Shown in pieces: positions 1-33,826 of a stretch of 64,000 bases of DNA (positions within the stretch are counted from its first letter, which is position 1; each line of letters opens with the position of its first letter). The position numbers and the translations under genes were made by a program. Below the pieces are notes generated by a model, which was not told the DNA's origin, searched no databases, and saw only the letters and a program-made list of their open reading frames with translations. The DNA lies in NCBI GenBank assembly GCA_963750165.1, contig CAVVPN010000011.1, forward strand, positions 1,536,001 through 1,600,000, given 5' to 3'. The DNA is from an uncultured Gemmataceae bacterium (lineage in GTDB: Bacteria; Planctomycetota; Planctomycetia; Gemmatales; Gemmataceae).

Positions 1-711
1 CAGCGCCCCCACCTCGATGTTCCGAGTCTGGGCCGCCTCGGTGAAGTTAGCGGAGGTCACGAGCGCGACCCGACGGTCCACCACCACGCACTTGGCGTGC
101 AGGCTCGACCGCTTCACCGCCTCGGCGTCCAGTGACCGGGGATCGTAGTACTGTTCCGGCAGACGGCCGCCAGGCCATTCCTGCGTGCGAAACCGGTGGG
201 CGAAGCGGCGCAGCAATTCCCAGTCTGGGGCATAATCACCTGGGGACCGCTGCACGTCGAGGAACAACCGCACTCGCAGGTCGGGCACTTCAGCCATGCG
301 CTCTGCCAGGGGGCGGAACACCTCCCGTCCCTGGTAGACCGCGAATCCGGCGACCAGTACCTCCGACTCAGCACAGCCAAACAAGTCGCGAACAACGACC
401 CCGGTGTCGCGGTTGCTGATGCCGAGCGTTTCCGGCCCGGTCCAAACGAGGTCAATCACATCTGCCGGTTGGGGGTGCTGAACCCGCGTCGTCAGCACCG
501 CCTCGGCGAGATGTGCCAGGTGCCGCGGTTGCATACCCTCCCCGTCGAGGTGGGCCAGGTACTGTGTGACTGCCGCGGCATGCCCCGTGTCGCAGAAGCG
601 GCCGACCGCTACCGCTTTGTACGGCGGTTGCAGCCGGCCTGACCGCAGCGCTGATGCCAGTGCCATCAGGTCAACGTCAGTGAGAAGTTGCAGGGCGTCC
701 ACGGGGTTCAC
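1..711 (-). CDS. drmC: DISARM phospholipase D-family nuclease DrmC (3' end runs off the window)
   Basis: Hand translation from GTG at 711 (GTGA overlap with the drmB stop): MNPVDALQ...DLVWTGPE...SLHAKCVVVDRRVALVTSANFTEAAQTRNIEVG. HxK(x4)D PLD motif; directly downstream of drmB. Absent from the ORF track because no stop falls inside the window. Confidence 0.9.
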   Translation of the reverse strand, partial: MNPVDALQLLTDVDLMALASALRSGRLQPPYKAVAVGRFCDTGHAAAVTQYLAHLDGEGMQPRHLAHLAEAVLTTRVQHPQPADVIDLVWTGPETLGISNRDTGVVVRDLFGCAESEVLVAGFAVYQGREVFRPLAERMAEVPDLRVRLFLDVQRSPGDYAPDWELLRRFAHRFRTQEWPGGRLPEQYYDPRSLDAEAVKRSSLHAKCVVVDRRVALVTSANFTEAAQTRNIEVGAL

Positions 712-2519
712 TCCGCCTGGAAAAACTCCGCCCCCGAATCCGCGACGGTCGGGACCACCAAGGCCCGGTCCAGGAAGTCGTTGAATTGCTCACAGGACGT
801 TTCCGCGACCAGCAGGCAGCCGTGACAGGCCGCCCCGTGCAGGTAGCGGCTCTCGTGTGGGTTCGGCGGCTCATGCTGGGCACAGACAGGGTCGTTGGAG
901 CACAACCGGCCCAACTCCAGCGCCGACCGCAGGTGCCGGTCGATCCTCCGTCCCTCTTCCACCAGCCCGCCCAGGGTTCCCTCGGCGTCCGGGGAGCCGG
1001 TGTAGAGCAGGATGCCGTAGCCGGCCTCCGTGGCGTACACGCGCTCCCGGATCGAACTCGCCGGGTAGCCGCACTCCAGGGCCACCGAAGTCAGCAGCAG
1101 GTGCGACAAGGAATGCAGCAGGAAGTACGGCAGTCCGGGAAACTCGCGGCGGCTGTGGGGGTGGGCCGCCTGCCACGCCTCGAAACCAGCGAGGAGTTGC
1201 TTGCCCCGCGCCTGCACCTCAACTTTTTTTACCCACCGATCAATGGCCTCCTGGCGGAACTGCAGGAAGATGCCCTCCCCGCGGTTCTCCACGGCAGGCA
1301 GCCACGACAACTCCCGCGCCAGGGGTGCCGCCTGTGCGCCGAGTTCCAACTCCCCCTGGACGTTCGCGGTATTCGCCTCGAACCGGGTGAAGCCCACCTG
1401 GGCGGTGACTTCCCGCAGCCGGTGTACCAGCACCACCCGTTCCACGATGCCCTTCCATGCTTTGTCCAACGCGGCTGGCGGCAAAGCCCGGGCAAGGAAG
1501 TCGCCGTCGGGCACGTCCTTACCCACTTCTTCCCTGGCGGCGACCAGCGCCTCAAATTCGGCCTGTTTGACCGACTTCATTGGGCTGCCACCGCCGGCAC
1601 CCTTGCGGGCCTGGATCTCCTGGAACACCTCCTCGTCGCTGAAGCCCTCCAGCGCCCCCTTGACGGGCGGCCTCTTGCGGCGCTCTGAGCGAAGGTCGTC
1701 CAGGTCCTCGACGTACTGCAGGTGATGCTGCCAGACCGCGTTGACCGCTTTCTCCAGCGACTCGTTGCGGTCCGGCAGCGAGATCACGCTCATGACTCGT
1801 GGGAAGTAGGCGTTACTGGCCGAGCGCACCAGCAGCCGGTTGGGCTCGTCGCAGCCTTCCTTCGAGTCGCGCCCCAGCCAGGGGCGGTTGCCGTCGCAGT
1901 GGCCGAGCAACCGCCGCTCCGGCAGCGTGGCGTCGGCCAACCGCCGGTGCTGCCCGCATTCGCAGCGCAGCACAATCTCGGCCAGGTCGCCGCTGGTGCC
2001 GCGCTCGTCCACCCAGAGCTGGCGCCGGCACTCGGTCACCGCGCGGTGGGTGAAGGTGTACCAGTCGATGTCGCCGATGTGCCCCTTCCGGCAGGCGCGA
2101 ACGAAGCGGATCGGCACCACCGGGTGCTTCTTCTTGTCCTGGTCGATGAACTTGCCGCGCGTCAGACCCCGCCGGTGGATCAGCAGACGCGACCGCGTGG
2201 CGCGGTCGCCGCGCTCGACATCCTGGGTGATGAACCATTCAGGGAATTGCCAGGCGGTGATGCCGGTCCTTGGCCCCGTGGGAGCTTCGCTGTCGGGGGG
2301 AGGGCCGTACAGGCGCAGGTCGGGCGCCTCCAGGAGGCGCTTGAGTTTTTCGACCAGGCGGGGTTCGTGGACCTCCTCGCCGACGCCGAACCAGTGGTCC
2401 AGGCCGCCGACGATCACGGAGTGGTTGGGCAGGTCCAGCAAGGCGCCGGGGCCGAACGTGGTGACGACCTGGCTGTGACGCACCTGCCCCTGCGGCCGGG
2501 CGTTGGGGTTCTTGCTCAT
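708..2519 (-). CDS. drmB: DISARM DUF1998-domain protein DrmB
   Basis: MSKNPN...VRHSQVVTTFGPGALLDLP; C-terminal LHSLSHLL, CSNDPVC...GAACHGC...ETSCE (DUF1998 Cys cluster). ATG overlaps the drmA stop (ATGA). Confidence 0.92.
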   Translation of the reverse strand: MSKNPNARPQGQVRHSQVVTTFGPGALLDLPNHSVIVGGLDHWFGVGEEVHEPRLVEKLKRLLEAPDLRLYGPPPDSEAPTGPRTGITAWQFPEWFITQDVERGDRATRSRLLIHRRGLTRGKFIDQDKKKHPVVPIRFVRACRKGHIGDIDWYTFTHRAVTECRRQLWVDERGTSGDLAEIVLRCECGQHRRLADATLPERRLLGHCDGNRPWLGRDSKEGCDEPNRLLVRSASNAYFPRVMSVISLPDRNESLEKAVNAVWQHHLQYVEDLDDLRSERRKRPPVKGALEGFSDEEVFQEIQARKGAGGGSPMKSVKQAEFEALVAAREEVGKDVPDGDFLARALPPAALDKAWKGIVERVVLVHRLREVTAQVGFTRFEANTANVQGELELGAQAAPLARELSWLPAVENRGEGIFLQFRQEAIDRWVKKVEVQARGKQLLAGFEAWQAAHPHSRREFPGLPYFLLHSLSHLLLTSVALECGYPASSIRERVYATEAGYGILLYTGSPDAEGTLGGLVEEGRRIDRHLRSALELGRLCSNDPVCAQHEPPNPHESRYLHGAACHGCLLVAETSCEQFNDFLDRALVVPTVADSGAEFFQAE

Positions 2520-5500
2520 GCGTCGTCCTCCACCACGTCGATGTTGTCCAGCGTCTTGACCCAGAGGTTGGCGCTCGGCTCCACGTCGCGCATGGAGCGG
2601 TTCGCCCGGAACTTGCGGTGCCGCATGGGCAGCGTCTTCAGCTCCGGGTTCAGGAACTCGTACAGCAAGCGCCGCGGCGAACCCTCCTCCTTCTGGTACT
2701 GGAGTTGCACCCCCAGGTCCTGGTACTCCTTGGCGATCTTGTCCCACTCGTCCAGCAAATCCCTGGACCGTTCCAGCAGCCGGTTCTTCAGTTCTTCCGC
2801 CTGCTCAGGCGTTTCGCCGAAGTCCTCGGCACGCCGGGCCAGCGCCCTGGCAACCCAGTCCAGTTTGCCCCGCTCCTTGAGAATCTCCATGGCGCCCCGG
2901 GCCGGCGTCAGTCCCGGGTGCCCCTGGCGGGCGAGTGCCACCAGGGTGCCGGCCAGGCCGCGGTCCAGCGCCCGCGGCGAAAACGGCGTCACGCTGGTCG
3001 CCTCGACGTTGCGGTAGAACGACTGGTGGTAGAAGGCGAAGCGCTCGAAGTGCGAGCGGTCGCGCGGCCGGTGGATGTTCAGGATGGTGACCACCAGGCC
3101 CGGCCGGTTCGGGTTGCGGCCGACGCGGCTGGTGGCCTGGATGTACTCGGCGCTGGTCTTGGGCTGGCCGAGCACCACCATCAGGCCCAGGCGGGTGATG
3201 TCCAGGCCGACGGAGATCATGTTCGTGGCGATGGCCACGTCCACCCGGTCCTTCTCCCAGAACGGCAGCGCCAGGCGGCGCTTGGCCTCGGCCACCCGGT
3301 CCGTGCTGACGCGCGAGGTCAACTCCAGCACCTCGTAGGCGATCTGCCGGGTGGCGAACAAGCCTTCCGCCTCCCCCTCGCGCTTGCGGCTGGCGTAGCC
3401 AGTCAGCCGCGTGCTCACCTCGTCCTCGACGATGCGGCGGCTGCCGCCCAGCTCGCGCAGGCTGTTGAAGTAGCCCAGCAGCGTCAGGTACGGGTCCGCC
3501 GGGTTGTCCTTGACCTTCTTGCCCCCGACGGCCTCGTACCACTTCTGGGCCGCGCCGAGCAGGGCCAGGTACACGCGCAGCAGGACGACCTTGGGGCTGC
3601 GGCCCTGGGCGGCGATGCCCAGGTAAAGCCTGGCGTGGCTCTCGGCGGTGGTGTGCGTGAGCGCGAAGAAGGAGTCGCGGCGGTTCGGGCCGGGGGGCGG
3701 GAAAATGTCCACGGTCCGGCGGCTGAACAGCGCCCGAATCTGCCGCTCCGCCCGCCGCACCGTCGCCGTCGAGGCCACGATCTTCGGCCGGATCTTCTTG
3801 CCGCCCTGCTCGCGCACGCACAGTTCGTCGAGGGCGGACTCGTACAGCCCGACCATCGTGCCCATCGGGCCGGAGATCAGGTGCAGTTCGTCCTGGATGA
3901 CCAGGTCGGGCGGCGGCAGCTGCTGGCCGGGCAGCGGCTGCCCGGCGTTGGGCTGGCACGGCCCGTAGAAGCCGTGCTTGTCGTAGCGGTCCACGCGGCC
4001 GAAGAAGCCGCCGACCGGGCCGGTCCACGGCAGGGCCGCGAACTTGTCCACCGTGGCGATCAGGAAGCAAGGCAGTCGCCGGTAGATCGGATCATCCACC
4101 GCCAGGATCGGCAGCGCCTGGTTGCGGGTGAAGGCGCACTTGCGGTTCACGCAGGTGATGCGCAGGTCGGTCGGGTAATCGGCGTTGGGCACCAGGTTGA
4201 ACGAGTCGGGCGTGAACTTCTCGCCGCACCAGGGGCACGCCTCCAGTGGGACCGGCGGGGCGTTGCTCTTGCCGCTCTTGTAATGGATGGTACGAGTACG
4301 GGCCGAGTGCTCGTTGCCGTCGCCCTTGTGACCCATCTCGTTCGGCGTGGCGGCGCGGCCGACCCACAGGCCGATCTCAAACGGCCAGTCCCCCAGCCGG
4401 TCGGCGTGCTGCTGCCGCTCCAGTTCCAGGGCGCAGATGAGGGTCGCGGCGCGGCCGAGCTGGTCCAGCGTCAGCAGCCGGAGTGTGTAGCGCATGAGCA
4501 CGCTCAGCCCCGCGCCGGCCACGCCGGGGTGCCGCAGGCGCCGCAGCACCAGGGTGAACGCCGCCAGGCCCAGGTACGCCTCGGTCTTGCCGCCGCCGGT
4601 CGGGAAGAACAGCAGGTCCACCACCGCCCGGTCGTCGCACGTCGGCTCGGCGACGCCCTGCAGGTTCATCAGCAGAAACGCGAGCTGGAACGGCCGCCAC
4701 CGCGGCGCCGCCACGCTTCCCGCGTCCTGGCCGCTCGCCATCCCGGCCCGCCGCCGGGCGGCGACCGCCATGACGCGGTTGGCGGTACGGAACGCCTCCA
4801 GGATCTGCGGATCCTCCAGCAGCTGGATGCCCGCCTCGATCCGGTTGGCGGCAACCTGGGCGCGGCTGAGCAACTCGGCCCCCGTCTCGGCCCGACATTT
4901 GGGGCGGGTGGGGATGACCGTTTTCTGTACCTCGATCCAGGCCCGGTACCGGGTAACCAGGGCCGACAGCTTCGCCCGCGCCGCCGCTCCGTCGGCCAGG
5001 TCCGCCAGCTGCTCCATCCCCAGTTCCGCGCCGGGAATATCCGCCGGGGCCACGCGCTCCACCTCGGCGGAGGGAATCCAGCGGGTGTGTACCTCGCGAC
5101 AATCATCCGCGCCATCGAGGACGGCCCGGGTGGCGACGCCGTGGCCCACGGCGAACTCGCAGGCGTCGCGGTACTGCAGGTCGGCGACGCGCTCGTCCCA
5201 GTCGGTGGACTCCAGGCCGCGCAGGTTGGGCCGCGGCACGAACGGCTCGGCACAGCGCACCTCCAGTGCCGCCTGGAAGGCGAAGGCGCTGTCGCGCTGC
5301 TCGTCCGGGGCGGGGACGCGCCGGTTCACCAGGAACACCGAGACGGAGCGCGTCCCCTTCGGCACCAGGCCGTCGAAGGCGGGGATGTCCTTGACCGGGC
5401 GGACCGCCAGGGCCACCTTCAGGGTTCCGCCTTTGGGACCGGCACTCCCGGGCACGTCCCACTCGGCCGGCTTCTGGGACGGGGAGAGCTTCAACGTCAC

Positions 5501-5976
5501 CTGTTCGACCCGCTCCCTGCGCTGCTACCCCTCGACTTCCCCCGGGTCAAAGAGTTGCCCTTGAATCGGTGGGGGTTGGCCGGGTCGAACAGGGTGGGCT
5601 GCGCGGTGCCTGGGTTGGGGGTGCGCGGCCGATAATCGCCCCAGCGGACGGTGACGTGCAATTCCCTGGCCCCCTTCGGCACCAGCAGGCTGAGGCCCAG
5701 CGACGACGGGAAAAAGGCACGGCGGGCCGCGGCCGGTTCAGGGGTGTTGTCGTCGTCGGTGCCCCCGCCGGTGTCCAGGGCGTCCACGCCCTCGCCGGCC
5801 GTCTCGTCGGCTTTCTGATCCTCATCGGCGTCGATGGGCACCAGGAAGCCGGTCAGGTACCAGCGGGACGGGGACTGCGGCAGTACCTCGTTGAGCAGTT
5901 CGGAACCGCGATCCGGGCCGATCAGGTCCAGGCCGAGGGTGCCGACCAGATGCGACCGGACTTCCGCCGAGGTCAT
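2516..5976 (-). CDS. drmA: DISARM helicase DrmA, split near 5500-5575 by a frameshift plus an in-frame TAG
   Basis: N-part MTSAEVRSHL...PSRWYLTGFL (5976-5497). C-part 5500-2516 has FPTGGGKTEAY, IQDELH, STAT, ATNMISVGLD and QATSRVGR helicase motifs. Confidence 0.9.
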
Positions 5977-6011: not shown

Positions 6012-6896
6012 TCATTCCGCGGCCTGTTTCGCGCCAAACTCCGGCCATTGTCTGTCTTCCGCGCGGCAGACGACTTCCTCTTTCGTCGGGTCAACCGGTT
6101 GCACAATCATCGTCTGCCCGAGCACCCTGCAAAAATGTTGCGATTCGGTACTGTTCAGCGTGAGAAAATGAGAAATCCCCGCGGACTCCAACGCGATCAG
6201 CAGGTCACCGACCGTCAGGCACGGGTCCTCCCTGGCTACTTTCGCAGAATTGGCCACCATCTTTGCCAGGAACTTTTCGGCCTTCCGAATCTCGGCCGAT
6301 TTCTTTTCCAGCGGAAGCGAGCGGAAATGCTGAAGGACCTTGTTTGTCAGGCCCGTGCGTTGATCGAGAAACGCACGAATGCCGCACACGCCCGGCTTGA
6401 CCTGGCTGCACCGGTCTCCCCCCAGTTCGTAGCGCCGCAAGGCGACCTTCTCAACGACGGGCTGAAGTGCGCACGCGCACTGGGAGTCGTCTCGAACCTC
6501 ATCCACCGCCTGGTCGAAACGCCGAAGCCCTGTGACCAGCAAACTCCGCAGGTAGAGCCGGAGCCGTTCCGCCCGTTCGGCGTCGCTGCCGCGATGCACC
6601 TGGAGCAAGGTTTGTAAACAGATGGTGCGCTTCCGTTGGTGCCACGGACCGAACAGGCGAATGACGTGCTGGAACACTTCCTCGAAGGAGTCGTACCGGT
6701 GCAGCAAGCCCAGGAGGTAGACCGCCTCCTTCATGAGGCGGCGCTTGAATTCCTGGCGAACAACCAGGCCGGTGACGTGCCTGGAATGTTGCGACAGGCG
6801 CTGCTTGATCGCCGCCTTCGTTTGAGGACCGTGGACTTGCCGTGCAATCTGGATCGAGGTGTCCAGGAACAGGTCCGGTTTCGGGGCGCTGGTCAT
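6012..6896 (-). CDS. PIN-domain-like protein (putative RNase/toxin)
   Basis: N-terminal LFLDTS, mid VVRQEF, C-terminal VGDLLIALE...FLTLN match the acidic-residue spacing of PIN domains. Alternative TTG start at 6923 overlaps the upstream stop. Confidence 0.6.
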   Translation of the reverse strand: MTSAPKPDLFLDTSIQIARQVHGPQTKAAIKQRLSQHSRHVTGLVVRQEFKRRLMKEAVYLLGLLHRYDSFEEVFQHVIRLFGPWHQRKRTICLQTLLQVHRGSDAERAERLRLYLRSLLVTGLRRFDQAVDEVRDDSQCACALQPVVEKVALRRYELGGDRCSQVKPGVCGIRAFLDQRTGLTNKVLQHFRSLPLEKKSAEIRKAEKFLAKMVANSAKVAREDPCLTVGDLLIALESAGISHFLTLNSTESQHFCRVLGQTMIVQPVDPTKEEVVCRAEDRQWPEFGAKQAAE

Positions 6897-6919
6897 GTAG
6901 GGCTCGATTCCACCGCGGT

Positions 6920-7543
6920 TCAATCCGACTCATCCGCCGCCGAGTCGCCGGAGATGGCGGCGAACGGGTCGAAGCCGGCGTCCTCGATCAGGCGCAAGGC
7001 TTCCGTCAGGTCGTCCACCGTCTTCGTCGCCGGCCCCAGGTAGTCCTTGACCAGGTCCACGATCTTCTTGCACTGGTCCGCGGTCAGCGTTTCCGCCCGC
7101 CTCTCCAGGAAGAAGCACCGCATCATGCCCTGCACGTGGTTGAGGATCGTCTGCCAGTCCACGTCGCGGCCTTCCCGCAACTTCCACAGTTCGGCCAAAC
7201 TCTGGTCCAGCCGGTCGGCCGCGACCCCGAGGCCCATCAGGTCGTTCGCCTTGGCCGCCCGGTGCATGGCTTCGGCGGCCTCCTGCGCCTCGTTCCAGTG
7301 CTTACGGAAGGCGCGGCGGACGTCGGTCGCGGGCAACGGCCGTTCTTGCCCCCTCTGCCCCCTTCCGGGCGGGCGCCGCTGCAAACTGGGGCCGCGCTGG
7401 ACGACGGCCCGACCGACCCAGACGCCTTCCCCGGTTGCCGTCCCATAATAGGATTCGGAAGTTGACCCGCCCGTCTTTTCAGGAAAGTCCAGCCGACGGT
7501 TCTCGTCGGCAACGGTGACAGGCCGTTCCAGGTCCAAGGGCAT
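6920..7543 (-). CDS. hypothetical protein (low-complexity N-terminus, helical C-terminus)
   Basis: 207-aa ORF with an AGGGAG-like RBS, tightly packed between two co-oriented genes. Confidence 0.75.
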   Translation of the reverse strand: MPLDLERPVTVADENRRLDFPEKTGGSTSESYYGTATGEGVWVGRAVVQRGPSLQRRPPGRGQRGQERPLPATDVRRAFRKHWNEAQEAAEAMHRAAKANDLMGLGVAADRLDQSLAELWKLREGRDVDWQTILNHVQGMMRCFFLERRAETLTADQCKKIVDLVKDYLGPATKTVDDLTEALRLIEDAGFDPFAAISGDSAADESD

Positions 7544-7546
7544 GGC

Positions 7547-8380
7547 TCATCTCCCTTTCTTGCCGTTCCCAGGCGGGATCGCGCTGCGGAACCGTTCCAG
7601 GTTGTGGCTGGTGCAATCCCGAATGAACTCGGCCACGTCCAGCTCAACAGGATTTATCCGAAAGGCGTCAATGTCCAGTACCGTCGCGAAGGCCGAGTTG
7701 ATTTGCCGCTGGCGTTGCTTTTTGAGAGTCTGGGCGAGCGTCTCCTGCTGATGCTTCGGCAAACCGCTTGAGCGAATCGTCAGGTTGACATCCCCAAACG
7801 GCACCTGGGCGGAGCGCTCCATGCCGTTCACCGCGATCCGGTAAGAGCAATCCTCGCCTTCCATCAGTGCGGAAAAGCCGACGGCGTCGAGCGTGCAGCT
7901 GAACGCCTCGGCCAACGTCGAGGACACCGAGTGGATGCTCAGATCCTTCAGCCAGCGCTCCGCGTCGGCCTTGCTCTCACAGGGAAAATAGTAGAGTTCG
8001 CGGACGCCGATGCGGGACCACTGCTGCACTTCCAGTTCGTCGAACACCAGGCCCAGGGTGTCCTCCGCCAGTTGAGCAAAACGCTGTGCCTCGTCCGTGT
8101 CGATGAACTCATCCGTACCGGTCTTGTTGAGGTCCAGGCTGGCGCCGTGCATCGAAAAGCTGAGCGTCACGCCCGCCACCAGGTGAAAGACCGCCGTGCC
8201 CTTGGGGGTCGGGTCCGCCCCAAAAATCCACTCCGGCGACGACTGGATCAGTTTTCTGAGCAGACGCCCGCAGTGGTCGAGGTACAGGTGCCCGTCCAGG
8301 TAGCGCACCTCGCAGACCATCTGCCGCAGCAGGGCTTCCTTCCCCTTGAACAGGCGAGTTGTCGTGAACCCCTTGGCCAT
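7547..8380 (-). CDS. TIGR04255-like protein
   Basis: Motifs VCEVRY, SRIGVR and VLDIDAF resemble the ExRF / RIGLRY / LDID hallmarks of TIGR04255-type proteins. Confidence 0.6.
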   Translation of the reverse strand: MAKGFTTTRLFKGKEALLRQMVCEVRYLDGHLYLDHCGRLLRKLIQSSPEWIFGADPTPKGTAVFHLVAGVTLSFSMHGASLDLNKTGTDEFIDTDEAQRFAQLAEDTLGLVFDELEVQQWSRIGVRELYYFPCESKADAERWLKDLSIHSVSSTLAEAFSCTLDAVGFSALMEGEDCSYRIAVNGMERSAQVPFGDVNLTIRSSGLPKHQQETLAQTLKKQRQRQINSAFATVLDIDAFRINPVELDVAEFIRDCTSHNLERFRSAIPPGNGKKGR

Positions 8381-8452
8381 GACGCGGCACCACCCCGTAT
8401 GAATCCCTGGACTGTCATTCTCCGGGACGCTATCTGTACAAACAAGCGCAAT

Positions 8453-11400
8453 TTAGTACAGCGAGGTGCCACTGCCATCATCCGCGGACGGCCGCGCCTT
8501 TCGGCCGCGTTTGGGCCTTGATGCCTTCTCCTTCACCGCGGGGCCGGCGAGCTTTTCCTGCTCGGCGCGCTGCTTGTTCAGCTCCAGCAGCAGGGCCAGC
8601 ACCTCGTCGCGGAAGGCGTCCGGCCAGCGGTAGCGCCACGGCTTCTTCCGCTGCCGGCCCGTCGGCGCCTCGTCCTCGTCCGCCTCGTCCTCGTAGTCGA
8701 GCAGAAATGCGCACGGCGGCACCGTCAGCCGCGCCAGGGCGCCGCCGTAGGCGTCGAGCACCGCCCGGTCCATCGCCGCGTGCAGCTCCCGCAGCTTGTG
8801 GATGTCGGCGGACGGCTCGTGCGGGTCGTGGAAGCGGTTGTAGGTCTTCGTCAGCCCCTCGCTGTGGCGGACCATCAGGGCGGCCCGGAAGTCGTAGTAC
8901 GCCTGCCCCGCCGCCTCCAAAGCCGGGTGCGACTCGAAGTTCTCGGGGAACGGGAATGTCTCGAAGCAGTCGGATGGGGTGTAGCGGAGGTCGTCCTTCA
9001 TTGAGGAGGCAAAGAATCGCGCCCAAATTTCATGGACGCGAGACTGGAGAGCGCAGAAGGTCGCCCGAGTGCTGATCGGGAACAGGTTGATTGTGTGAGC
9101 AGCCACGATGCCAGTCGGCAGACAAGTTATTGCGAGATGACTGCTCACGTTGGAGTTTGCAAGCACCGTCTCCTTTTCGCGAATGGCCGCGAACATTTCT
9201 GTCCGGGGCCTTTCATACTGCCACCAGGGCACGCGAACCGAAGAGTCGCGGTATGGCTTTACCTTCTGCTCCACGATCCGCATCAAATCCGGCCACTGTC
9301 GAGCCTGATCCTCGGACATCACTCCGAAATTGATGACAAATCGGTGGTGGGCGTGGGTAGGGCCATCGTTCAGTTCTTCACCACCGATGTATGGGAATAT
9401 ACGTTCGGCATTTCGCTTGTCCTTGGCAACGACTTCTTCCATAAGGCTGATCGGGTTCGCTACACCTGTCTTGTCCGTGTCGTCGAACGTAAAGCCTCCT
9501 CCGTAAATCTTTGCACCAGTAAAACTCTTGCCCGCGTTGGCCCGCAGCGTGGCCGGGTTTTCATGGCCGCCAGCGTGGAACAGGTATGCGGTGATGAGCG
9601 GCACCTCCTTGCCGTCCAGAAGGTACGGCCCCGGGATCGGCCCTTTGTGAACGTGAACCACGCTGACCACCACCGCCGCCTGGCCCGGCCACTTGTAGCG
9701 GCGGCGGGCGGTGTAGATGGTGCCGCCGTGCGTGCAAATCCAGCGCAGGCCGGTGGTGCGCGTGTCGCCCTGGGCAATGGTGTTGGTGGTGATCAGGCCG
9801 AAGGTGCCGCCGGGCCGCAGCAGGTTGAACGCGCGGCGGAAGAAGTGGGATACCAGATCGGCGTTGCCGTGCGACTCGGGATGGATTGCCTTCAACCAGT
9901 CGAGATAGCCTGCCGCGTGGCCGTCTATGATGGTGTTCTTGCCCGCGAAGGGCGGATTGCCCACGATCACGTCGAAGCCGGGGTTGTCGCGGCCGAACAC
10001 TTCGGGAAACTCGATCTCCCAGTGGAACGGCCGGATCGGGTGTTCGCCCGCGCGCAACCGGGCCTCGGCCTTGCCCAGTGGTTCGCGCAGTTTCATGTCC
10101 TTGCTGACCCAGTACGCATCCACCTGCCCAAAGAGTTCGTTGCGCTGGTCCACGCGCTGATTGGCCCTGTCCCGAGAGAAAAACGCAGCGACGACCAGAT
10201 TGCCAAGGAAACGCGGCAAACCCAGGGCTTCTTCGGCGTCATTCAATTTCTGCCGCTTGAGCAGGTCCGGCACGTCGTCGCCGGACTCGATGATCTGCCG
10301 CCGGTACTCCGTGACCTGCTTGATGCGCTGGGTGATGTCCGCCTGCACGAAGGTCTGGCGGTCGGTGGGCAGCCAGTGAAAGCCGTTGATCTGCTGGCGC
10401 GTCAGGCCGACCAGCGAGTCGCCGGCCTTGAGGGCGTGGTCGAGGAAGGTGAAGGGGTGGTCCTTCGCCAGCGTCACCAACCACAGCGACAGCTTGGCCA
10501 GGTCGGCGGCCAGCGGGTTCCTGTCCACGCCGTACAGGCAGCGCTGGGCGACGGTGCGCTGCGCCAGCAGTTCGGGCGTCTCGTCGTCGGGCACACGCGG
10601 CATGTCGCCGTGGGTGGTCCACGCCGCCAGCAGCGCCGCCCCCAGTTGGCGGCACGCCTCCACCAGGAACGCGCCCGAGCCCATCGCCGGGTCGCAGACC
10701 TTCAGCCCCAGGAGTTGTTCCGACGTGGGCGTTCCCCTCACCCCCGACCCCTCTCCCCCACCGGGGCGAGGGGAGACGAGCGCGTTCAGCACCGGCTCCA
10801 GCGCCTTGCGGACGATGGGCTCGGTGAGGCTGCGCGGTGTGTAGTGCGAACCGGAGCGGCGGCGCTCGTCGCTGGGCTGCAGGACCATCGCCCCGGCCGG
10901 CACCAGGTTCGGCGTCAGCTCCCGGGCGACCTTGCGCTCCAGGGCCGCGACCGCGTCCTCCGCCGTCGCCGCCGCCTTCAGCGCGGTCAGCGCCGCCCAG
11001 GTGACGGCCTGGTCCGTGTGCTCCTTCAGCCATTTGGCCCGGTCCTTGCCCGGCACCCGCAGCAGTTCCTCCAGGTTGACGGTCACGGGCGCGCCGTGCG
11101 CCTTGGCCGGCCGCACCGCGATGGACCGCCCGGCCGCCTGGGTCAGGCGGAAGCCCATGCTCGCCTCGTACACCGAGCCGATCTGCTCCACGTCGAGGCT
11201 GCGGTACGAAATCCGCTCGCCGTCCAGCACCATCAGGTTGTGCAGCACCCGGAAGACGACGCCGTCCGGCACCAGCGGCACGGCCACGCGCTCGCCCGGC
11301 TGGCGGCGGGCGCGGTGGCCGCGGCCTTCGAGGAACGGGTAGCGGTCGGGGTCGAACAGGTAGCCGCGGCGGGCCGGCAGGCGGAAGGCGCCGTGGCCGC

Positions 11401-12478
11401 CGCCGTCGTAGACCAGGCGGAACAGGGCCAGCAGCTGCCCCCAGGCGCCGTAGCGCTGGTCCATCGTGTCGGGGTGGCGGCCGGCGTCGGTGCGCAGCCG
11501 GTCGAACAGCCCGGTGACGGCGTAGTGCTTGACGTAGACCTCGGCGGCGGACATCAGGCCGCGGTCCTCGGCGTAGAGCACGAACACCAGCCGCAGCAGC
11601 ACCGTCAGCAGGCCGGCGTAGATCGTATCCGGCTCCAGGGTCAGCACCTCGCGGAGCAGCTCGCCCTTGCGCTGGTCGTCGGCCGCCTGGAAGCCGCGCA
11701 GCAGCTCGAACAGGGCGGCCAGCACCTGCTTGGCCAGTTCGTTGGAGACGGTGTTCTGATAGCGGCGGCTGTCGGCGAGGATGGCGGGCAAGCGTTGTTT
11801 ATCCGGCAGGCTGAACAGGCGCTCGGCGGACAGGAGCATGCGCAGGGCGGCGAAGACGGGCCGGCCGGCGGTCTCGGCCAGGGCACGCACCGGGAAGGTG
11901 AGGTGGCCGACGCTCTCGCCGCGCGGCGCGTACACCAGGCGCAGGTGAGTGCCGTTGCACAGGAGGCCGATGGGCACGCGCGTCTCGCGCAGCAGCCGCT
12001 CGAAGCGGACCTGCGGCGTGGCCAGCCAGTGCCGGGTGTCGCCGGATGCGACGGCGTCGAGGTCGGTGACGACCGGCAGGGACTGGATGAGTAGGAGCCA
12101 GGGCGGGCCGTCCGCGGGGGGCGGGTCGGCGGGCACGGCCCAGGTCGGCCGCAGCGTCTCATGGTAGTCGGTCAGGACGACTTCCAGCGCCGCGGCCCGC
12201 GGGTCGGCGGCCGCGACCAGGTCGCCGGGCTGCCAGCCGAGGACTTCGCGGCACAGGCCGGGCAGGTCGGTGACGGCCGCGACCGGCTCGGGCCGGCCCA
12301 TGATATGCACGTCCTTGACGAACGTGAGGAAGTGCTGGTGCTCGGCGGCGCAGTTGAGGTTGACGTGGGCCTGGGCCTGCAGCAGTGCCGGCGCCGAAAC
12401 GACGAGGCCGACCGGCTGCAGGTAGCCGAGCCATTGCTGGTGCGCCAGGAGTTCTGGGTCTTTGGCCATCGCGATCAC
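8453..12478 (-). CDS. drmMI: DISARM adenine methyltransferase DrmMI (Eco57I-like)
   Basis: GSHYTP, DPAMGSGAF (SAM binding) and FDVIVGNPPF (catalytic) motifs. GTG overlaps the drmD stop. Confidence 0.9.
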   Translation of the reverse strand: MIAMAKDPELLAHQQWLGYLQPVGLVVSAPALLQAQAHVNLNCAAEHQHFLTFVKDVHIMGRPEPVAAVTDLPGLCREVLGWQPGDLVAAADPRAAALEVVLTDYHETLRPTWAVPADPPPADGPPWLLLIQSLPVVTDLDAVASGDTRHWLATPQVRFERLLRETRVPIGLLCNGTHLRLVYAPRGESVGHLTFPVRALAETAGRPVFAALRMLLSAERLFSLPDKQRLPAILADSRRYQNTVSNELAKQVLAALFELLRGFQAADDQRKGELLREVLTLEPDTIYAGLLTVLLRLVFVLYAEDRGLMSAAEVYVKHYAVTGLFDRLRTDAGRHPDTMDQRYGAWGQLLALFRLVYDGGGHGAFRLPARRGYLFDPDRYPFLEGRGHRARRQPGERVAVPLVPDGVVFRVLHNLMVLDGERISYRSLDVEQIGSVYEASMGFRLTQAAGRSIAVRPAKAHGAPVTVNLEELLRVPGKDRAKWLKEHTDQAVTWAALTALKAAATAEDAVAALERKVARELTPNLVPAGAMVLQPSDERRRSGSHYTPRSLTEPIVRKALEPVLNALVSPRPGGGEGSGVRGTPTSEQLLGLKVCDPAMGSGAFLVEACRQLGAALLAAWTTHGDMPRVPDDETPELLAQRTVAQRCLYGVDRNPLAADLAKLSLWLVTLAKDHPFTFLDHALKAGDSLVGLTRQQINGFHWLPTDRQTFVQADITQRIKQVTEYRRQIIESGDDVPDLLKRQKLNDAEEALGLPRFLGNLVVAAFFSRDRANQRVDQRNELFGQVDAYWVSKDMKLREPLGKAEARLRAGEHPIRPFHWEIEFPEVFGRDNPGFDVIVGNPPFAGKNTIIDGHAAGYLDWLKAIHPESHGNADLVSHFFRRAFNLLRPGGTFGLITTNTIAQGDTRTTGLRWICTHGGTIYTARRRYKWPGQAAVVVSVVHVHKGPIPGPYLLDGKEVPLITAYLFHAGGHENPATLRANAGKSFTGAKIYGGGFTFDDTDKTGVANPISLMEEVVAKDKRNAERIFPYIGGEELNDGPTHAHHRFVINFGVMSEDQARQWPDLMRIVEQKVKPYRDSSVRVPWWQYERPRTEMFAAIREKETVLANSNVSSHLAITCLPTGIVAAHTINLFPISTRATFCALQSRVHEIWARFFASSMKDDLRYTPSDCFETFPFPENFESHPALEAAGQAYYDFRAALMVRHSEGLTKTYNRFHDPHEPSADIHKLRELHAAMDRAVLDAYGGALARLTVPPCAFLLDYEDEADEDEAPTGRQRKKPWRYRWPDAFRDEVLALLLELNKQRAEQEKLAGPAVKEKASRPKRGRKARPSADDGSGTSLY

Positions 12479-15400
12479 CCTGTCACCGGCCAGAGGTACG
12501 CCAGCCCGACTGGCTCAACGCGCTGGGCCTTGACTACATACAGCCTACGGATACGCTCGGGCTCCTCCGCCAACTCGCGGTCCAGTTCCGCCAGACGGCG
12601 GCCCCAGTGGCGGCGATCGGCGTCCAGCTGGCGCATCTCCTCCTGGTTGAACAAGTCCAGGGTGATCTCGCGTGCCTTCGCTTCCGTGGCAGTGATGCGC
12701 TTCCGCTGATCTTCCAGGATGCCGCGCATGGCCTGCGCTTCCTTCTCGCCGCGCTCGCGAAGCAGACGGGCGGCCCCCTCCGCCACCTCCCGGCCGCGCT
12801 TCTCCAGTTCGGGCAGCAACTCGGCCAGGTCGCGCGGCCCGGCCGCCTTCAGCTGGTTGCCGACGACCTCGTTCAGCGGCTGGCCGGGCTTGAGCAGGGC
12901 CGCCTCAAGCAGCTGAAGCGTGTTGGCCTCGGCCTCGCGCGCGTAGGGCGTCAGCGGTCCCTTGCGCTTGTCCGGGTAGCTCCAGCGAGCGGTGACCGGG
13001 ATCAGTTCCTCGTGCAGGCGGGCGGCCCCGGCGCCGTACAGGCACAGCCTGCCCAGCAGGACAACGCGCGGCACCGCGTCGGCGGTCTGCGTCAGGCAGG
13101 CGCGCGACAGGTCGTGGTGGACGAAGCCCTGGGCGGTGAAGCGGCCGAGCAGGCGGCGCACGACGGGGTGCTCCAGGTGCAGGTGTACCACCTCGTCGGT
13201 CATCTTGCCGGGGTCCGCGAAGACCACGGGCCGGATGTCCGAGTCCCGACGCCAGTCCCAAAAGGTTTGCTCGCGCTGCCGCGGCGAGCGCAGGGCGTCG
13301 AGGGAGTCGGCCCAGGACGGGTCGGCCCCGCGCCGCCGGTCCAGGTCGGGGAAGGTGTAGCGGTCGGGCTCGCCGGGCAATTCCTTGAGTGGTTCGGCGT
13401 CCATCAGTTCCAGCCCGCAGGAGACGGCGGCGCGGAAGTGGTTCCCGTCAAAGCCGATCTTCTTCTCAGAGTCCCTCAGTTGGCCCCGCAACTCCTCTAA
13501 CTGGTCCTTCAGTTCGTCCTGGCGGGCGCGGGCGGCTTCCAGTTCCTCGGCGACGACGCGCTTGTAGTCGGCGTCGAGATCGGCCCGGTCGATGTCGTGT
13601 TCCAGGCGGGCCACGTCGGCGTGGCGGATGCCCTGGCCCAGCGCCTCGGTCAGCTTGCCCTCGATCACCTGCGCCAGGCTGCCCAGTTCCTTCTTGATCG
13701 TCTCGGTCTTGCGAACCAGGGCACGCAGGACGCGGTCCTCGGCCCGCTGGCGGTAGACGAAGTAGTGGCAGTTCACCACCGGCTGCGGCTGCAGTTTACG
13801 GTCGATGCGGCCGTTGCGCTGCTCCAGGCGGCTGGGGTTCCAGGGCACGTCGAAGTGGAACAGGTCGGCGCAGTGCGTCTGCAGGTTGATGCCCTCGCGG
13901 GCGGCGTCGGTCGCCAGCAGGATGCGGATAGGGTACTTGGCCGGGTCGCCGTTGAAGGCCCGCTTGATCTCCTCGCGCTGGGCCTGTGGCGTCGGGCCGT
14001 GATAGACGGCGAGCCGCTCGGCACCACGGTCGGTTCGCTCCAGGGCCGCCTCCAGTTGCTGGCGGAGGTAGCGCAGCGTGTCCTCGTATTCGGTGAAGAT
14101 CAGGACGCGGGTGTCGTTCCAGTGCGGCGGCTGGCCGCGCGGGGGCGACGCGCCGGGGCGCGGCAGGCCGGGGCACTGGTGCTCGCGCACCCAGTCGAGC
14201 AGGCGGAGGACACGCGCGTCGGGCCGGCCACGGGCTTCCTCGGCAACCCTGGTCATCTCGTCGAGCAGCGTCAACTCATCTGCGACAGGGGCCGACGGGG
14301 ACGCGGCGGTGGCGGCTTCGACCTGGGCCTCTTCTTCCCGCTCCAACTCCTCGACGGCACGTTCGGCACGGTCGTCGTCGCCGTCGATGCCGCCGCCGAG
14401 CAGATCGAAGAGGCCGGTTTGCTGTTCGGCTCGGGCCGCCTGCCGCTGGCGTTCCAGCGTGCGGCGGTGGACGCGCAGGGTGCGGGCGAACGCCTCGACG
14501 GAGGACAGCAGCCGCTGCTGCAAGCCGGAGACGAGCAGGGCGGCGATGGTCTGCTGACGCTTCGTTGCGTCGGTCAGCCGCGCCTCGCGCAACCGGCGGT
14601 AGCGGTCGAGCAAGTCGGACAGGCGCAGCTCCGGCGCGTCGGCCGGCAGGCCGTCGAGGTCGATCTGCAGGACGTTCCGCTGCGGGAAGCCGCCCTGGAT
14701 GGCGCGGACATCCTCCTTGAGGCGGCGCACCATGACATCATCGAGGAGCTTGCGGCTCTTGACCGGCACGCCGCGGCAGAAGCGCTGCGGGTCGAGGATC
14801 TCCAGCAGGGCGGAGAAGCTGTTGGAGTGGCCGTTGTGGGGTGTGGCGGACAGGAACAGGCGGTGCTCGAACCTCGGGGCCAGGTCGCGCACGGACCGGG
14901 TGATGCGCGAGTCGATGGCGTACCGCGAACCGCTGGCCGGTGCAGCGTGGTGGGCCTCGTCGAGGATGAGCAGGGCGCCGGGCCGGAAGTCCCCAAGCCA
15001 GTCACGCAGTGGGCCTGCGTAGGCTTCGTCGATGAGCAGGCGATGCGAAATGAGGAAGCGGCTGTGCGTGGTCCAGGGGTTGGTGGCGTAGCCGCGCTCG
15101 CGGCGGACGCGGATGACGTAGTCGCGGTCGAGCACCTCGAAACTCAGTCCGAAGCGGTTCTCCAACTCACTTTGCCACTGCGGCAGCACCGACGGCGGGC
15201 AGCAGACGACCACGTCCTTGACCTTCTTGCGGAGTAAGAGTTCACGGGCGATCAGGCCCGCCTCGATGGTCTTGCCCAGGCCCACGTCATCCGCGATGAA
15301 CAGGTTGACGCGCGGCAGCAGCAGGGCCTTGCGCAGCGGCTCCAGTTGGTAGGCGTCGATGTGGATGCCAGCGCGGAACGGCGCCTGAAACAGCCGCGGG

Positions 15401-15699
15401 TTGGTGGCGGTGACGCAATTCCAGCGCAACGTGTGCAGGTAGGCGGAGAACAGCCGCGGCGGGTCGAAGCCGCGCCTGGCCAGGTGCTCCCAGCCGGCGC
15501 TGCCTAGAACTTCGGAGTCTAACTCCGTCTCCCACAGGGCCTCCAGGGGCTGGCCCTGGGCGTCGTCGTCGAGGCAGGCGAGGCGGACCAGGGTGGCGTC
15601 GTTGGGGTGCGGCGGGGCGACCACATCCTCCACCAGGTACTGCCGCTGGCGAACGCGGACGACTTCACCGAGTTTGGGGAGGCGGGTGTCGTTTTGCAT
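12475..15699 (-). CDS. drmD: DISARM SNF2-like helicase DrmD
   Basis: IADDVGLGKT, LDEAHH, LSATPHNG, TDAAREGINL and EQRNGRIDR motifs. N-terminal GEVVRVRQRQYLVE. Confidence 0.92.
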   Translation of the reverse strand: MQNDTRLPKLGEVVRVRQRQYLVEDVVAPPHPNDATLVRLACLDDDAQGQPLEALWETELDSEVLGSAGWEHLARRGFDPPRLFSAYLHTLRWNCVTATNPRLFQAPFRAGIHIDAYQLEPLRKALLLPRVNLFIADDVGLGKTIEAGLIARELLLRKKVKDVVVCCPPSVLPQWQSELENRFGLSFEVLDRDYVIRVRRERGYATNPWTTHSRFLISHRLLIDEAYAGPLRDWLGDFRPGALLILDEAHHAAPASGSRYAIDSRITRSVRDLAPRFEHRLFLSATPHNGHSNSFSALLEILDPQRFCRGVPVKSRKLLDDVMVRRLKEDVRAIQGGFPQRNVLQIDLDGLPADAPELRLSDLLDRYRRLREARLTDATKRQQTIAALLVSGLQQRLLSSVEAFARTLRVHRRTLERQRQAARAEQQTGLFDLLGGGIDGDDDRAERAVEELEREEEAQVEAATAASPSAPVADELTLLDEMTRVAEEARGRPDARVLRLLDWVREHQCPGLPRPGASPPRGQPPHWNDTRVLIFTEYEDTLRYLRQQLEAALERTDRGAERLAVYHGPTPQAQREEIKRAFNGDPAKYPIRILLATDAAREGINLQTHCADLFHFDVPWNPSRLEQRNGRIDRKLQPQPVVNCHYFVYRQRAEDRVLRALVRKTETIKKELGSLAQVIEGKLTEALGQGIRHADVARLEHDIDRADLDADYKRVVAEELEAARARQDELKDQLEELRGQLRDSEKKIGFDGNHFRAAVSCGLELMDAEPLKELPGEPDRYTFPDLDRRRGADPSWADSLDALRSPRQREQTFWDWRRDSDIRPVVFADPGKMTDEVVHLHLEHPVVRRLLGRFTAQGFVHHDLSRACLTQTADAVPRVVLLGRLCLYGAGAARLHEELIPVTARWSYPDKRKGPLTPYAREAEANTLQLLEAALLKPGQPLNEVVGNQLKAAGPRDLAELLPELEKRGREVAEGAARLLRERGEKEAQAMRGILEDQRKRITATEAKAREITLDLFNQEEMRQLDADRRHWGRRLAELDRELAEEPERIRRLYVVKAQRVEPVGLAYLWPVTG

Positions 15700-16094
15700 G
15701 AGGCGCCCCACCTGATCCTTGGGAACGAAAGCGATTTCCAACCGGGTGTGAAGGTCGTTTCCGTTAGGTATCAAGCGGCTGACCCGGTTGGTGTATTGAA
15801 AGGGGCAGGCCGAGGTGCGTCAACGAAAATCGAGACAACCCTTCATCTGCGGTCAAAGAAGAGGACGCCCCTCCCCCCGGTCTGGCCCCACCAGCCCTCG
15901 CCGCTTTTTCGCGGTCCTGGCCAGCCAGCGGGTCGATGGCGTGGTTGCCCCATCGGGCATCTGGTGGTGGCTCAGGGTCAGGGCGTCCGCGTCGTCCGGG
16001 GAGCAACCTGGCCTGGCCGGTGCAGCCAGGTCTGCGCGGTCGAGGCGTCATCCGGCGGTACGGCCCGGCCCGCTGGGCATCGCAGGCGCTGGTG

Positions 16095-16706
16095 TCACTT
16101 CAGGGCAGTTCGCCCCCCCGATCCCCACCGCGGCTCCGGCCCGACGTAGCCGTCCAACCCCATCCAGGGGTAGCGCCCCTCCAGCACCAGATGTGCCCAG
16201 GTGCCGCGCAGCGTGTCCGCCCCGCAGTGCGGGCAGGAGGGGAAGAAGCACGGCAGGTCGTACCACGGCGGCTGGCCCACCATCGGCACTTTACCTGGCA
16301 GGATCTTCCACTCGCTCAGCGGCGGCGTGCGGCGTTGGGGGTAGCACAGGCCGCAGCCCAGGCACACCCAGTCGTAGTCGTCGCACTCCGGCGACAGCCG
16401 CGTCAGCAGCAGCGCCTTCATCACCGCGGGCGACACCTCCGGCAACCGCCAGCGGCCCTCGAAGAGTTCGTCCAGCCAGCGCCGGTACGGCCCGCCATCG
16501 GTGTCCAGGGCCGTCATGGCCGCCTCGACCTGCTTGACCTCGCCCGGGTCCATCAGCGCCACCGCCGCGCCGCACAGTCGCATCACCCGGTCGGTCACTT
16601 GCTTCGCCCGCTTTTCCCTGGCGGGGTCAGGGGGAGGCGGCAGGGGGAAGCGAGTGTCGCAGCCCTGCTCGGCTTTCTTCAGACGGTGCTTCAGGGATGA
16701 GGACAT
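16095..16706 (-). CDS. hypothetical protein with two CxxC pairs
   Basis: 203-aa ORF with CLGC and CPHC; co-oriented with the element genes. Confidence 0.7.
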   Translation of the reverse strand: MSSSLKHRLKKAEQGCDTRFPLPPPPDPAREKRAKQVTDRVMRLCGAAVALMDPGEVKQVEAAMTALDTDGGPYRRWLDELFEGRWRLPEVSPAVMKALLLTRLSPECDDYDWVCLGCGLCYPQRRTPPLSEWKILPGKVPMVGQPPWYDLPCFFPSCPHCGADTLRGTWAHLVLEGRYPWMGLDGYVGPEPRWGSGGRTALK

Positions 16707-16728
16707 GGGTGTGCTCCGCGGCGCCGAC

Positions 16729-17127
16729 TCAGACGGCCCGGGGGTAGGACTCCTGCGTCTCGGCCCCCAGTCGCCCCTCCAGGGCGGCCAGGCGGCCCTC
16801 CAGTTCGCTGGCCTCGCGCAACTTGACCCCCAACTCCAGGACCGCCTTGGCCGCCCCTAGCCGCACCGCCGGCGGCTGGCCCTCCCGCTGCAGCGCCAGC
16901 AGCGTCTTGATCGACTTGGTGGCCGCCACCGTCAGCGCCCCGGCGGCCCGCTGCACCATGTCGGCGCGGGCCTGCTGCACCTGCTGGCGGAAGGCGGGGT
17001 CGGCCAGGCGGCGCTTGACGGTGCGGGCGCTGACGCCGGCCTGGCGGGCGGCGGCCTCGGCCGTGGCTCCACAGGCCAGGGCCAAAACGAGTCGGACGTC
17101 CGCCTTGGTCCGTGCCTGGTTATTCAT
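16729..17127 (-). CDS. small HTH protein (terminase-small-subunit-like, typical of satellites)
   Basis: AEAAARQAGVSARTVKRRL HTH, followed by helical VRLGAAKAVLE...LEGRLAALE. Confidence 0.65.
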   Translation of the reverse strand: MNNQARTKADVRLVLALACGATAEAAARQAGVSARTVKRRLADPAFRQQVQQARADMVQRAAGALTVAATKSIKTLLALQREGQPPAVRLGAAKAVLELGVKLREASELEGRLAALEGRLGAETQESYPRAV

Positions 17128-17424
17128 GGTGGGCTTGCTCCGTCGGCGTGCCGCCGGGCCTGTGGGGCCGGAATGGCCCTTTTTGTCCAATTTCTGTCAC
17201 TCTGCCGGGGGCAACTCCGTGGGTCGTCGTTATCCCGGCTCATGGCCCCCGACTACCGTTGTGCCGCTTCCTGGCGCGGCCTCGCCTTTTTCGCCCCGGC
17301 CGCCCTGGCATTCTAACACCGGCCCGCCGTTCCGTCGCCCAGGATGGCCCTGGGGCGTTGGCGCGCTGACCGGGGCTTTTTGTTGGTGCCCGCCGTCAAC
17401 GAGACGGCGACCCTTCCGGTTCAG

Positions 17425-17541
17425 GAACATCATCATCGCGTCGGCAGTCCCCCCTAAAGGGGGGGGACTGCCGCGATGATGATGTTCATGATTCCTCGAA
17501 CATCGCGACGCGATGATGTTCTTCCTCAAACGATGATGTTC
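17425..17541. repeat. palindrome plus iterons, putative replication origin
   Basis: Nested inverted repeat 17425-17487 around CCCCCC-TAAA-GGGGGGGG. CGATGATGTTC direct repeats at 17511 and 17531. Confidence 0.6.
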
Positions 17542-19066: not shown

Positions 19067-19817
19067 TGCTCGCCGTCCTCCGGGATGCTCAGGACGGCGC
19101 TGCGCCGGTGGGGGCGGCCGCGCCGGGCACGTCGTCCCCTTTTCGCCCCACGGTGCCGTACAGTTTTGTGATGCGTGACGGGTTGTAGACGGTGCGGTCG
19201 ATCTTCACGGCGTCGGTGTCAAACTGGTCCGCCAGGCGGTTCAGGAACCGCTCCACCAGGCCGACGTCGTCGGCCGGCAGGTCGCCGGGGTAGAGCAGGT
19301 GGTAGCCGTTGGCGCTGTCCGCGACGATTGGTTTTGGCCACTCCTCGTCCGTCAGGTGCTCCCGGACGCGCTGGGCGACCTTCCACGCCTCGGCCTTCTC
19401 GGCATCCGTGCTGGGGATGCCGGCGATACGCTTCGGGTCGGCGTCGATGAGCAGCCAGCGCCGCCGCCGGACGTGCTGGTCGTTGGTCAGTTTGCCGGTT
19501 TCAGCCCAGTCCACGCGGTTGCACCGCCGGCAGATGATGTCCGGGAGCAGCGGGTTGAGGGTGTAGTAGACCCCGACGGCGTACCGCTCGATCTCCAGGG
19601 CGGTTTGGGCCATCAAGTCGAAGTGGTCGTAATCGAAGTAGCCCGACTCGATGTGGGGCCGCTCCTGCGTTCGACGGCGCACGTCCACCGCCCGCAGTTC
19701 GACCACGTCACCGGGCTCGAAGAGGACGCGCAGCCAACCGGCAATCCGGGCGGCGCTGATGACGCCGGGTTTGCCCACGCCATTGGCGTGGACGCCGCTG
19801 ACGGTGGCCGTGCTCAT
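19063..19817 (-). CDS. AEP-superfamily primase/polymerase (frameshift near 19120)
   Basis: WLLIDADP, DSANGYHL and KIDRTVYNPSRI motifs. Alternate frame continues GRPHRRSAVLSIPEDGEQ to a TGA overlapping the helicase GTG. Confidence 0.75.
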
Positions 19818-22306: not shown

Positions 22307-22465
22307 TGCGGAAACCCTCGCATCCAGGTGCCAGCACTAGCAACTGAGTTTGAGGATAAACCACAAGCGCGTCCGGGAGATTTTCCGTGCAACGAGTGTG
22401 CAATGAGATGAAGAGCAGTGGGGGGCAACTGGCGGTAACTGGCGGTAACGGGGCTTAAAAAAATA

Positions 22466-33816: not shown

Positions 33817-33826
33817 CGGGGCACCT

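Follow-up and report, generated by a model that had tools for sequence, protein, structure and literature searches.

A three-gene cassette with a predicted split-PIN toxin and a remote TIGR04255 relative inside a class I DISARM locus

The three genes and their searches

We describe a cassette of three genes, named g1, g2 and g3, in an uncultured Gemmataceae bacterium (NCBI GenBank assembly GCA_963750165.1, contig CAVVPN010000011.1). The window analysed is a stretch of 64,000 nucleotides (positions 1,536,001 to 1,600,000 of the forward strand). The genes are three co-oriented open reading frames on the minus strand between drmMI and drmA of a class I DISARM locus, and their coordinates confirm the tight packing and the sizes (277, 207 and about 294 amino acids (aa)) given in the initial annotation. 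The triplet is a real, widespread and apparently undescribed three-gene system, best classed with the toxin-antitoxin-plus-regulator kind. Its features are:

g1, 7547..8380, minus strand: 277 aa; distant kin of TIGR04255; model with a duplicated alpha/beta sheet and weak likeness to TBP; proposed as regulator, either chaperone or sensor
g2, 6920..7543, minus strand: 207 aa; predicted antitoxin
g2 residues 1-75, 7319..7543, minus strand: variable low-complexity tail; Tyr32 codon at 7450-7448
g2 residues 76-198, 6950..7318, minus strand: conserved domain, helical by sequence pattern
g3, 6012..6896, minus strand: 294 aa from ATG; modelled split PIN fold, predicted RNase toxin
Spacer between drmMI and g1, 8381..8452, no strand: 72 bp, 55.6% GC

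An alternative start of g3 (TTG at 6923, overlapping the g2 stop) would give a protein of 303 aa. All three genes had been described as lower in GC, which holds for g1 (0.613) and g3 (0.605) but not for g2 (0.673), which resembles the drm genes (0.68-0.70). Likewise, the spacer called AT-rich is so relatively but not in absolute terms. A sigma-70-like or promoter-like match is not found in this spacer, and terminator-like sites are no more frequent at the locus than expected by chance.

None of the three window proteins passes any cut-off in Pfam, NCBIfam or PADLOC, and a match to an already named system, which would have contradicted the initial annotation, is not found in these collections. 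For the known and candidate systems of PADLOC 2.0, 0 of the 3 proteins match at E<=1, as do 0 of 70 relatives and TIGR04255-locus proteins in PADLOC at E<=0.001. A search of NCBIfam with 96 members of the g3 family gives scattered weak matches only; the ESM Atlas returns unnamed clusters only for g1 and nothing at 0.9 for g2.

Conservation and spread of the triplet

The search with a g3 alignment yields 121 loci, consisting of 80 from metagenomes (the best 80 of 88) and 41 from genomes; together they form 97 clusters at 90% identity, and many of the contigs are short. Homologues number 187 for g3 and 43 for g1 (or 898 clusters at 50% identity when searched by profile). The order g1-g2-g3 is present in 60 of the 65 clusters with at least 1.5 kb of upstream DNA (the exceptions being L086, L104, L118, L120 and L121). 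In 81 of the 86 clusters with at least 300 bp upstream, g2 precedes g3, the coupled arrangement of type II toxin-antitoxin genes. Given that g3 and g1 have many homologues and that the gene order is conserved, the cassette is not a product of chance. L104 and L110 resemble broken copies.

Among whole genomes of the window's phylum, g3 is found in 9/401 and g1 in 8/401. The adjacent triplet is present in all 8 g1-bearing genomes (in one of them spanning a contig overlap), and one carries an additional lone g1-like gene. The conserved triplet that the initial annotation looked for elsewhere thus exists. A lone, shorter g1-like gene is seen at L139:1124-1894, before a housekeeping gene and without g2 or g3.

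In two other phyla the g3 family occurs in 2/251 and 4/251 genomes. Relatives come from, among others, Planctomycetota, Acidobacteriota, Verrucomicrobiia, Sumerlaeia, Atribacteria and one gammaproteobacterium, and the data suggest that the closest relatives of the triplet proteins are in Planctomycetota. The viral contigs and plasmids searched hold no g3 relative, and with the two queries used no g1 relative is found in phages or plasmids.

g3 as a predicted split PIN protein

The third gene was initially called PIN-like, and its structure model (predicted local distance difference test (pLDDT) 95) agrees: the best match in a wide structure search is VapC21 (Z 9.4, root-mean-square deviation (rmsd) 3.2, 134 residues aligned over residues 6-272). 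Of the 18 matches at Z>=8, 13 name VapC, VapBC, FitAB, PIN or Utp23, and a weak Pfam match to PIN is seen in 16 of 96 family members. Since the VapC21 alignment spreads 134 residues across 6-272, we read the protein as split: in the model, g3 is a VapC-type PIN fold of about 135 residues interrupted by an insert of about 150 residues.

Three acidic positions, which we take to be part of the PIN active site from the PIN pattern, are conserved: D12 in 85, E49 in 90 and D231 in 89 of 96 rows, and gaps account for nearly all misses. The fourth position, residue 248, holds Asn in 86/96 rows, with E251 nearby in 85/96; in the Caldilineaceae rows introduced below it is Asp in 4/6 (the other 2 are gaps). 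Four cysteines (C140, C163, C171 and C226) recur in 89-93 of the 96 rows as well as in all six distant rows, and probably bind zinc. Judged by model and conserved residues, g3 is predicted to be an RNase, and to be toxic.

g2 as a candidate antitoxin

The second protein falls into two parts: residues 76-200 form the conserved part (mean top-residue frequency 0.45), whereas the variable part, residues 1-75 (0.23), is rich in disorder-promoting residues. Within this tail, Tyr32 is kept in 47 of 57 aligned relatives. The conserved part recurs in two-gene pairs of an antitoxin-like and a split PIN protein, of which two Caldilineaceae genomes (G401 and G402) hold six and one, respectively (L171-L176 and L229). 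Six of the seven antitoxin-like partners begin with a recognizable head, Phd/YefM in four (E 6e-7 to 0.005, below cut-off) and AF2212 in two (above cut-off); the seventh has no Pfam match. The C-domain of g2 aligns with the C-domains of six Caldilineaceae partners at 95.4% in hhalign (E 1.9e-8; reversed control 0.4%, 29 shuffles at most 1.9%), and at L086 a g2-type C-domain carries an HTH_3 head (E 5e-9). The 207-aa protein, initially proposed as the antitoxin, is therefore antitoxin-like by homology to Phd-, AF2212- and HTH-headed partners of the same PIN family, and its C-domain likely blocks g3.

In the triplet, the variable tail of about 75 aa occupies the place of the antitoxin head. Profiles of g1 and TIGR04255 have no match in the DNA analysed around the loci without g1 (six with 3.7 kb each, and L086, L120 and L121 with about 20 kb), and a known triplet used as control is matched at 3e-114. 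Two loci have another first gene. At L118:4690-7015 an AAA_21 ATPase gene in the g1 position overlaps the start of g2 and is coupled to it; the g2 head is short, and g2 and g3 follow. At L236:313-2542 an unnamed gene of 260 aa (C-terminus COMM-like by eye, no Pfam match) is followed by a g2-like gene with a long tail and by a g3 relative.

Two further observations were set aside. Over 56 loci, the partial r of tail co-variation is 0.27 for g1 and 0.06 for g3, where the pairs are non-independent and g1 may be a better phylogenetic marker; the tight spacing of g1 and g2 arises partly by construction and is not used as evidence.

The C-domain of g2 shows co-variation with g1 (partial r 0.58) as well as with g3 (0.49), as might be expected if there were no toxin-antitoxin switch and the three proteins formed a complex in which all parts are required to activate the nuclease. 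DS-5 would be a precedent: there, deletion of the partner of the PIN protein abolished defence without releasing toxicity (PMC13092281). The large insert of g3 could also autoinhibit the protein, as proposed for the split-PIN system DS-3 (PMC13092281). However, two-gene operons have this C-domain behind classic antitoxin heads, in a gene that precedes a member of the same PIN family, and we consider such a complex improbable.

g1 and the TIGR04255 family

Against a profile of 29 members of TIGR04255, an uncharacterised NCBIfam family, g1 reaches 92.6-93.2% in hhalign (E 3-5e-7; controls at most 2.8%). The first gene of a distant triplet (L235) forms a bridge by matching both the g1 and the TIGR04255 profiles at about 1e-8 in a small search. 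The TIGR04255 model itself behaves differently: g1 gives no match at E<=1, its cut-off of 30 bits is not reached, and only 5 of 42 g1 relatives match weakly (best E 0.019). Strict membership of the family is rejected for this reason. What is left of the proposed TIGR04255-like first gene is a kinship seen by profile-profile comparison only; by these profiles g1 and TIGR04255 are remote homologues over the domain.

The g1 model (pLDDT 85) is an alpha/beta protein with TBP (Z 6.8) and rolling-circle Rep (Z 6.5) as structure matches and the McsB kinase domain and AdoMetDC scoring similarly, all with Z below 7 and rmsd above 5. Foldseek against the PDB gives TBP, Rep and AdoMetDC at low TM-score (TM) only. 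As all best matches remain at Z <7, no fold family is assigned. The SecB-like fold that the initial annotation proposed to look for is not among the structure matches listed, and Pfam has no match. In a viral structure library g1 matches one unnamed protein best (E 1.7e-7, TM 0.49/0.64).

These matches lead to the main rival explanation, in which g2 and g3 are antitoxin and toxin partners but g1 is a nucleic-acid binder that replaces the lost head as operon repressor or senses phage DNA or RNA. The heads replaced by the tail are of DNA-binding types (Phd, AF2212, HTH), the two best folds are TBP and Rep, and the first position of L118 is taken by an AAA_21 ATPase. Nonetheless, Z <8 with rmsd >5 possibly reflects a common arrangement, McsB kinase and AdoMetDC score equally, and a tail with a conserved tyrosine would be left unexplained. 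We regard this explanation as rather unlikely, though it deserves more weight than the complex discussed above.

TIGR04255 itself is present in 41/251 genomes sampled in the phylum, and a toxin-like pair lies downstream in 27 of 30 of its loci (L141-L170). Above the Pfam cut-off, the toxins comprise three PIN and one PemK; there are also one weak HicA and one DUF7689. Another 21, without Pfam support, were named by eye from motifs and are taken here to be 16 PemK-like, 4 ADP-ribosyltransferase-like and 1 HEPN-like proteins. Many of the second genes start with a low-complexity stretch (by eye). The 16 loci with the PemK-like motif form one family without Pfam match, and the window's own genome has one TIGR04255 locus (L160, G000:C12:306963-307673). 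TIGR04255 and its aliases are not named in the main text of any paper found in our literature searches. DefensePredictor lists TIGR04255 proteins among its predicted defence genes and among the neighbours by which the score is increased (Tables S3 and S4; PMC13092281).

Genomic neighbourhood

Of the 170 flanking genes that lie within two called genes of the loci, 12 (in 10 of 66 loci) carry restriction or defence Pfam domains. When toxin-antitoxin-like and nuclease families are added, this becomes 21/170 genes (17/66 loci). The background consists of 40 random stretches with 117 genes, of which 1 has a defence or restriction domain. For the narrow and the broad class respectively, Fisher tests of the excess give p = 0.017 and 0.00016 by gene and 0.049 and 0.0013 by locus, with neighbour classes set after inspection, a background that is not taxon-matched, related genomes that are not independent and 66 loci that include non-triplet exceptions. 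Overall, the neighbourhood lends mild support to a defence role.

Most triplet neighbours are housekeeping or unnamed genes, which would also fit a three-part addiction or stress-dormancy module that has no anti-phage role and drifts among insertion sites; the six two-gene copies in one large genome recall chromosomal vapBC loci. Set against this are the modest enrichment of defence neighbours, the embedding in DISARM both here and in L034, the defence predictions for TIGR04255 proteins cited above and the lack of any relative in the plasmids searched. A module of this kind seems about as improbable to us as the all-parts complex.

Proposed mechanism

Our tentative preference is for a three-part toxin-antitoxin switch that follows the logic of toxin-antitoxin-chaperone (TAC) systems with a regulator other than SecB, and that is probably directed against phages. 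Here g3 would be the PIN ribonuclease toxin and the C-domain of g2 would neutralise it. g1 would hold the N-terminal tail of g2 and so keep the antidote functional. A trigger, probably a phage product, would displace g1 from the tail, after which the freed toxin would cause growth arrest. The RNase activity and toxicity of g3, binding of g2 to g3 and of g1 to g2, zinc binding by the cysteines, the phage trigger and the arrest are all inferences. Support comes from the conserved gene order, the modelled PIN fold, the homology of the g2 C-domain, the exchange of head for tail where g1 is present and the kinship of g1 with TIGR04255.

A wider reading is possible, though more doubtful. The TIGR04255 fold may constitute a second, SecB-independent class of plug-in chaperone-sensor that captures ordinary two-gene pairs (PIN, PemK, HicA, HEPN-like, ADP-ribosyltransferase-like and possibly the MBL protein of DS-42) through an N-terminal addiction tail that has been grafted on the antitoxin and so makes phage-triggered switches of them. 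In that case this locus would be the split-PIN version and the Caldilineaceae two-gene forms the uncaptured state.

Several observations weigh against the switch. Regarding the toxin, Foldseek finds nothing significant for g3 in the PDB, its Z of 9.4 is little above the 7-8 that is usual for models without a clear match, and the triplet family has Asn at the fourth PIN acidic position, where the two-gene family has Asp. All seven two-gene pairs stem from just two genomes, and their four Phd matches lie below the Pfam cut-off. The different first genes of L118 and L236 imply that the tail does not strictly depend on g1, and the second gene of the TIGR04255 locus L161 has no long tail. Just 4 of the 27 TIGR04255-locus toxins pass the Pfam cut-off. 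Finally, 49 of 66 loci are without a defence- or toxin-like gene within two genes, and the neighbour enrichment rests on post hoc classes, unmatched backgrounds and related genomes.

Comparison with known systems

In the TAC systems HigBAC and CmdTAC, an unstructured antitoxin tail with key aromatic residues binds a SecB-like chaperone, and in HigBAC a phage tail protein competes for the chaperone (10.1101/2024.02.24.581848). The triplet resembles them in having three genes, a (predicted) RNA-targeting toxin, an antitoxin with a long unstructured tail and a third protein proposed to hold that tail; Tyr32 of g2 recalls the dependence of the TAC ChAD tails on aromatics (10.1101/2024.02.24.581848). 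However, the triplet is ordered regulator-antitoxin-toxin, g1 has no SecB among the matches listed, and the toxin is a 294-aa split PIN. The tail of g2 is N-terminal, whereas ChAD is C-terminal, and the conserved domain of g2 reaches residue 198 of 207. Strict TAC membership is rejected on account of this N-terminal variable tail.

With VapBC the triplet shares the modelled PIN fold with conserved D, E and D, and the two-gene relatives carry Phd/YefM, AF2212 and HTH heads. On the other hand, g3 is twice the size of VapC, with an insert of about 150 aa and four invariant cysteines, its partner has a conserved C-domain of about 125 aa, and the window locus has a third gene but no DNA-binding head.

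DS-42 (PRO1) of DefensePredictor consists of three co-oriented genes encoding 238, 190 and 363 aa, and protects weakly against Bas1 (-log efficiency of plating (EOP) 1.1, small plaques; PMC13092281). As in the triplet, its middle protein has a long low-complexity N-terminus and its last protein is a nuclease-type (MBL) effector (by eye). This comparison is by gene layout and description only, and the effector is an MBL hydrolase against the PIN-fold g3; strict DS-42 membership is rejected on this ground.

The TIGR04255 family resembles the triplet through its remote full-length profile match to g1 and through the same first position in coupled three-gene operons, but g1 is not matched by the family model. 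PIN-based anti-phage systems are also known from DS-3 and DS-5 (PMC13092281) and HEC-03 (10.1101/2024.01.29.577857). In DS-3 the PIN domain is likewise split between N- and C-terminus (PMC13092281), and HEC-03, like L118, pairs an ABC ATPase with PIN (10.1101/2024.01.29.577857). They differ in having one or two genes and no g1 or g2 in their descriptions, the comparison with DS-3 and DS-5 being by description, and PADLOC has no match for any of the three families of the triplet. PMC11980606 and PMC12458937 describe systems other than the triplet. No paper describing the triplet emerges from literature searches confined to openly accessible papers and the main text of preprints.

The host locus

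The surrounding operon was initially taken for class I DISARM, and rightly so: the minus strand carries all five drm genes in order, drmD-drmMI-(g1-g2-g3)-drmA-drmB-drmC. NCBIfam cut-offs are passed by drmD, drmA and drmB.

drmD, 12475..15774, minus strand: NCBIfam and PADLOC profiles; host locus
drmMI, 8453..12469, minus strand: PADLOC DrmMI profile, E 0; host locus
drmA, 2516..5976, minus strand: NCBIfam; two frames, change at about 5524-5542
drmB, 708..2519, minus strand: NCBIfam and PADLOC profiles; host locus
drmC, 1..702, minus strand: PLD domain; truncated by the window edge

The frame shift in drmA is located by comparison with an intact paralogue in the same genome and may be a mutation or an assembly error. 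In that paralogous DISARM locus (C11, about 950,000) drmA is intact and drmB is split.

Class I DISARM-like loci number three in the host genome; besides the one described here they are L241:221-802 and L242 (G000:C11:953901-954900; 995701-1002400). Their drmMI-drmA slots hold a ParE toxin pair in one case and CBS, helicase, QueC and HTH-IrrE genes in the other, and unrelated systems are often embedded in DISARM (10.1101/2024.01.29.577857). The drmMI-drmA junction is a cargo slot. As drmMI adjoins the triplet in only 1 of 121 loci (L034), many of them on short contigs, the triplet is a passenger in DISARM and not a component; it does not travel with the drm genes.

These counts also bear on the specific link to DISARM that had been proposed initially. 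A dedicated DISARM accessory would monitor Drm proteins and kill the cell upon failure of DISARM, much as PrrC guards type I restriction. The position and orientation within the operon here, and the position after drmMI in L034, would suit such a role. The single adjacency, the different cargo in the paralogous slots and the frequent embedding of unrelated systems argue the other way; a DISARM-specific backup is rejected, and we give an accessory role hardly any credence.

Directly upstream of drmD (window 16095-24588) lie integrase, DUF1580, AAA_25 and HATPase genes, which suggests that the DISARM locus is carried by an integrative element. Further along are DUF4145, Toprim and DNA methylase genes (window 25123-33954) and a tRNA-Lys (42691-42764).

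Conclusions

The triplet gives a testable function for TIGR04255, a widespread and uncharacterised family. It also adds a large family of split-PIN toxins, probably zinc-containing to judge from the conserved cysteines, together with an unnamed antitoxin domain, and the two-gene pairs constitute an unnamed large-PIN type II family. The natural two-gene and three-gene forms permit a direct swap comparison. If g1 indeed controls the antitoxin through its tail, the toxin-antitoxin-chaperone design would have two separate origins on unrelated folds, and a single explanation would cover many orphan three-gene operons.

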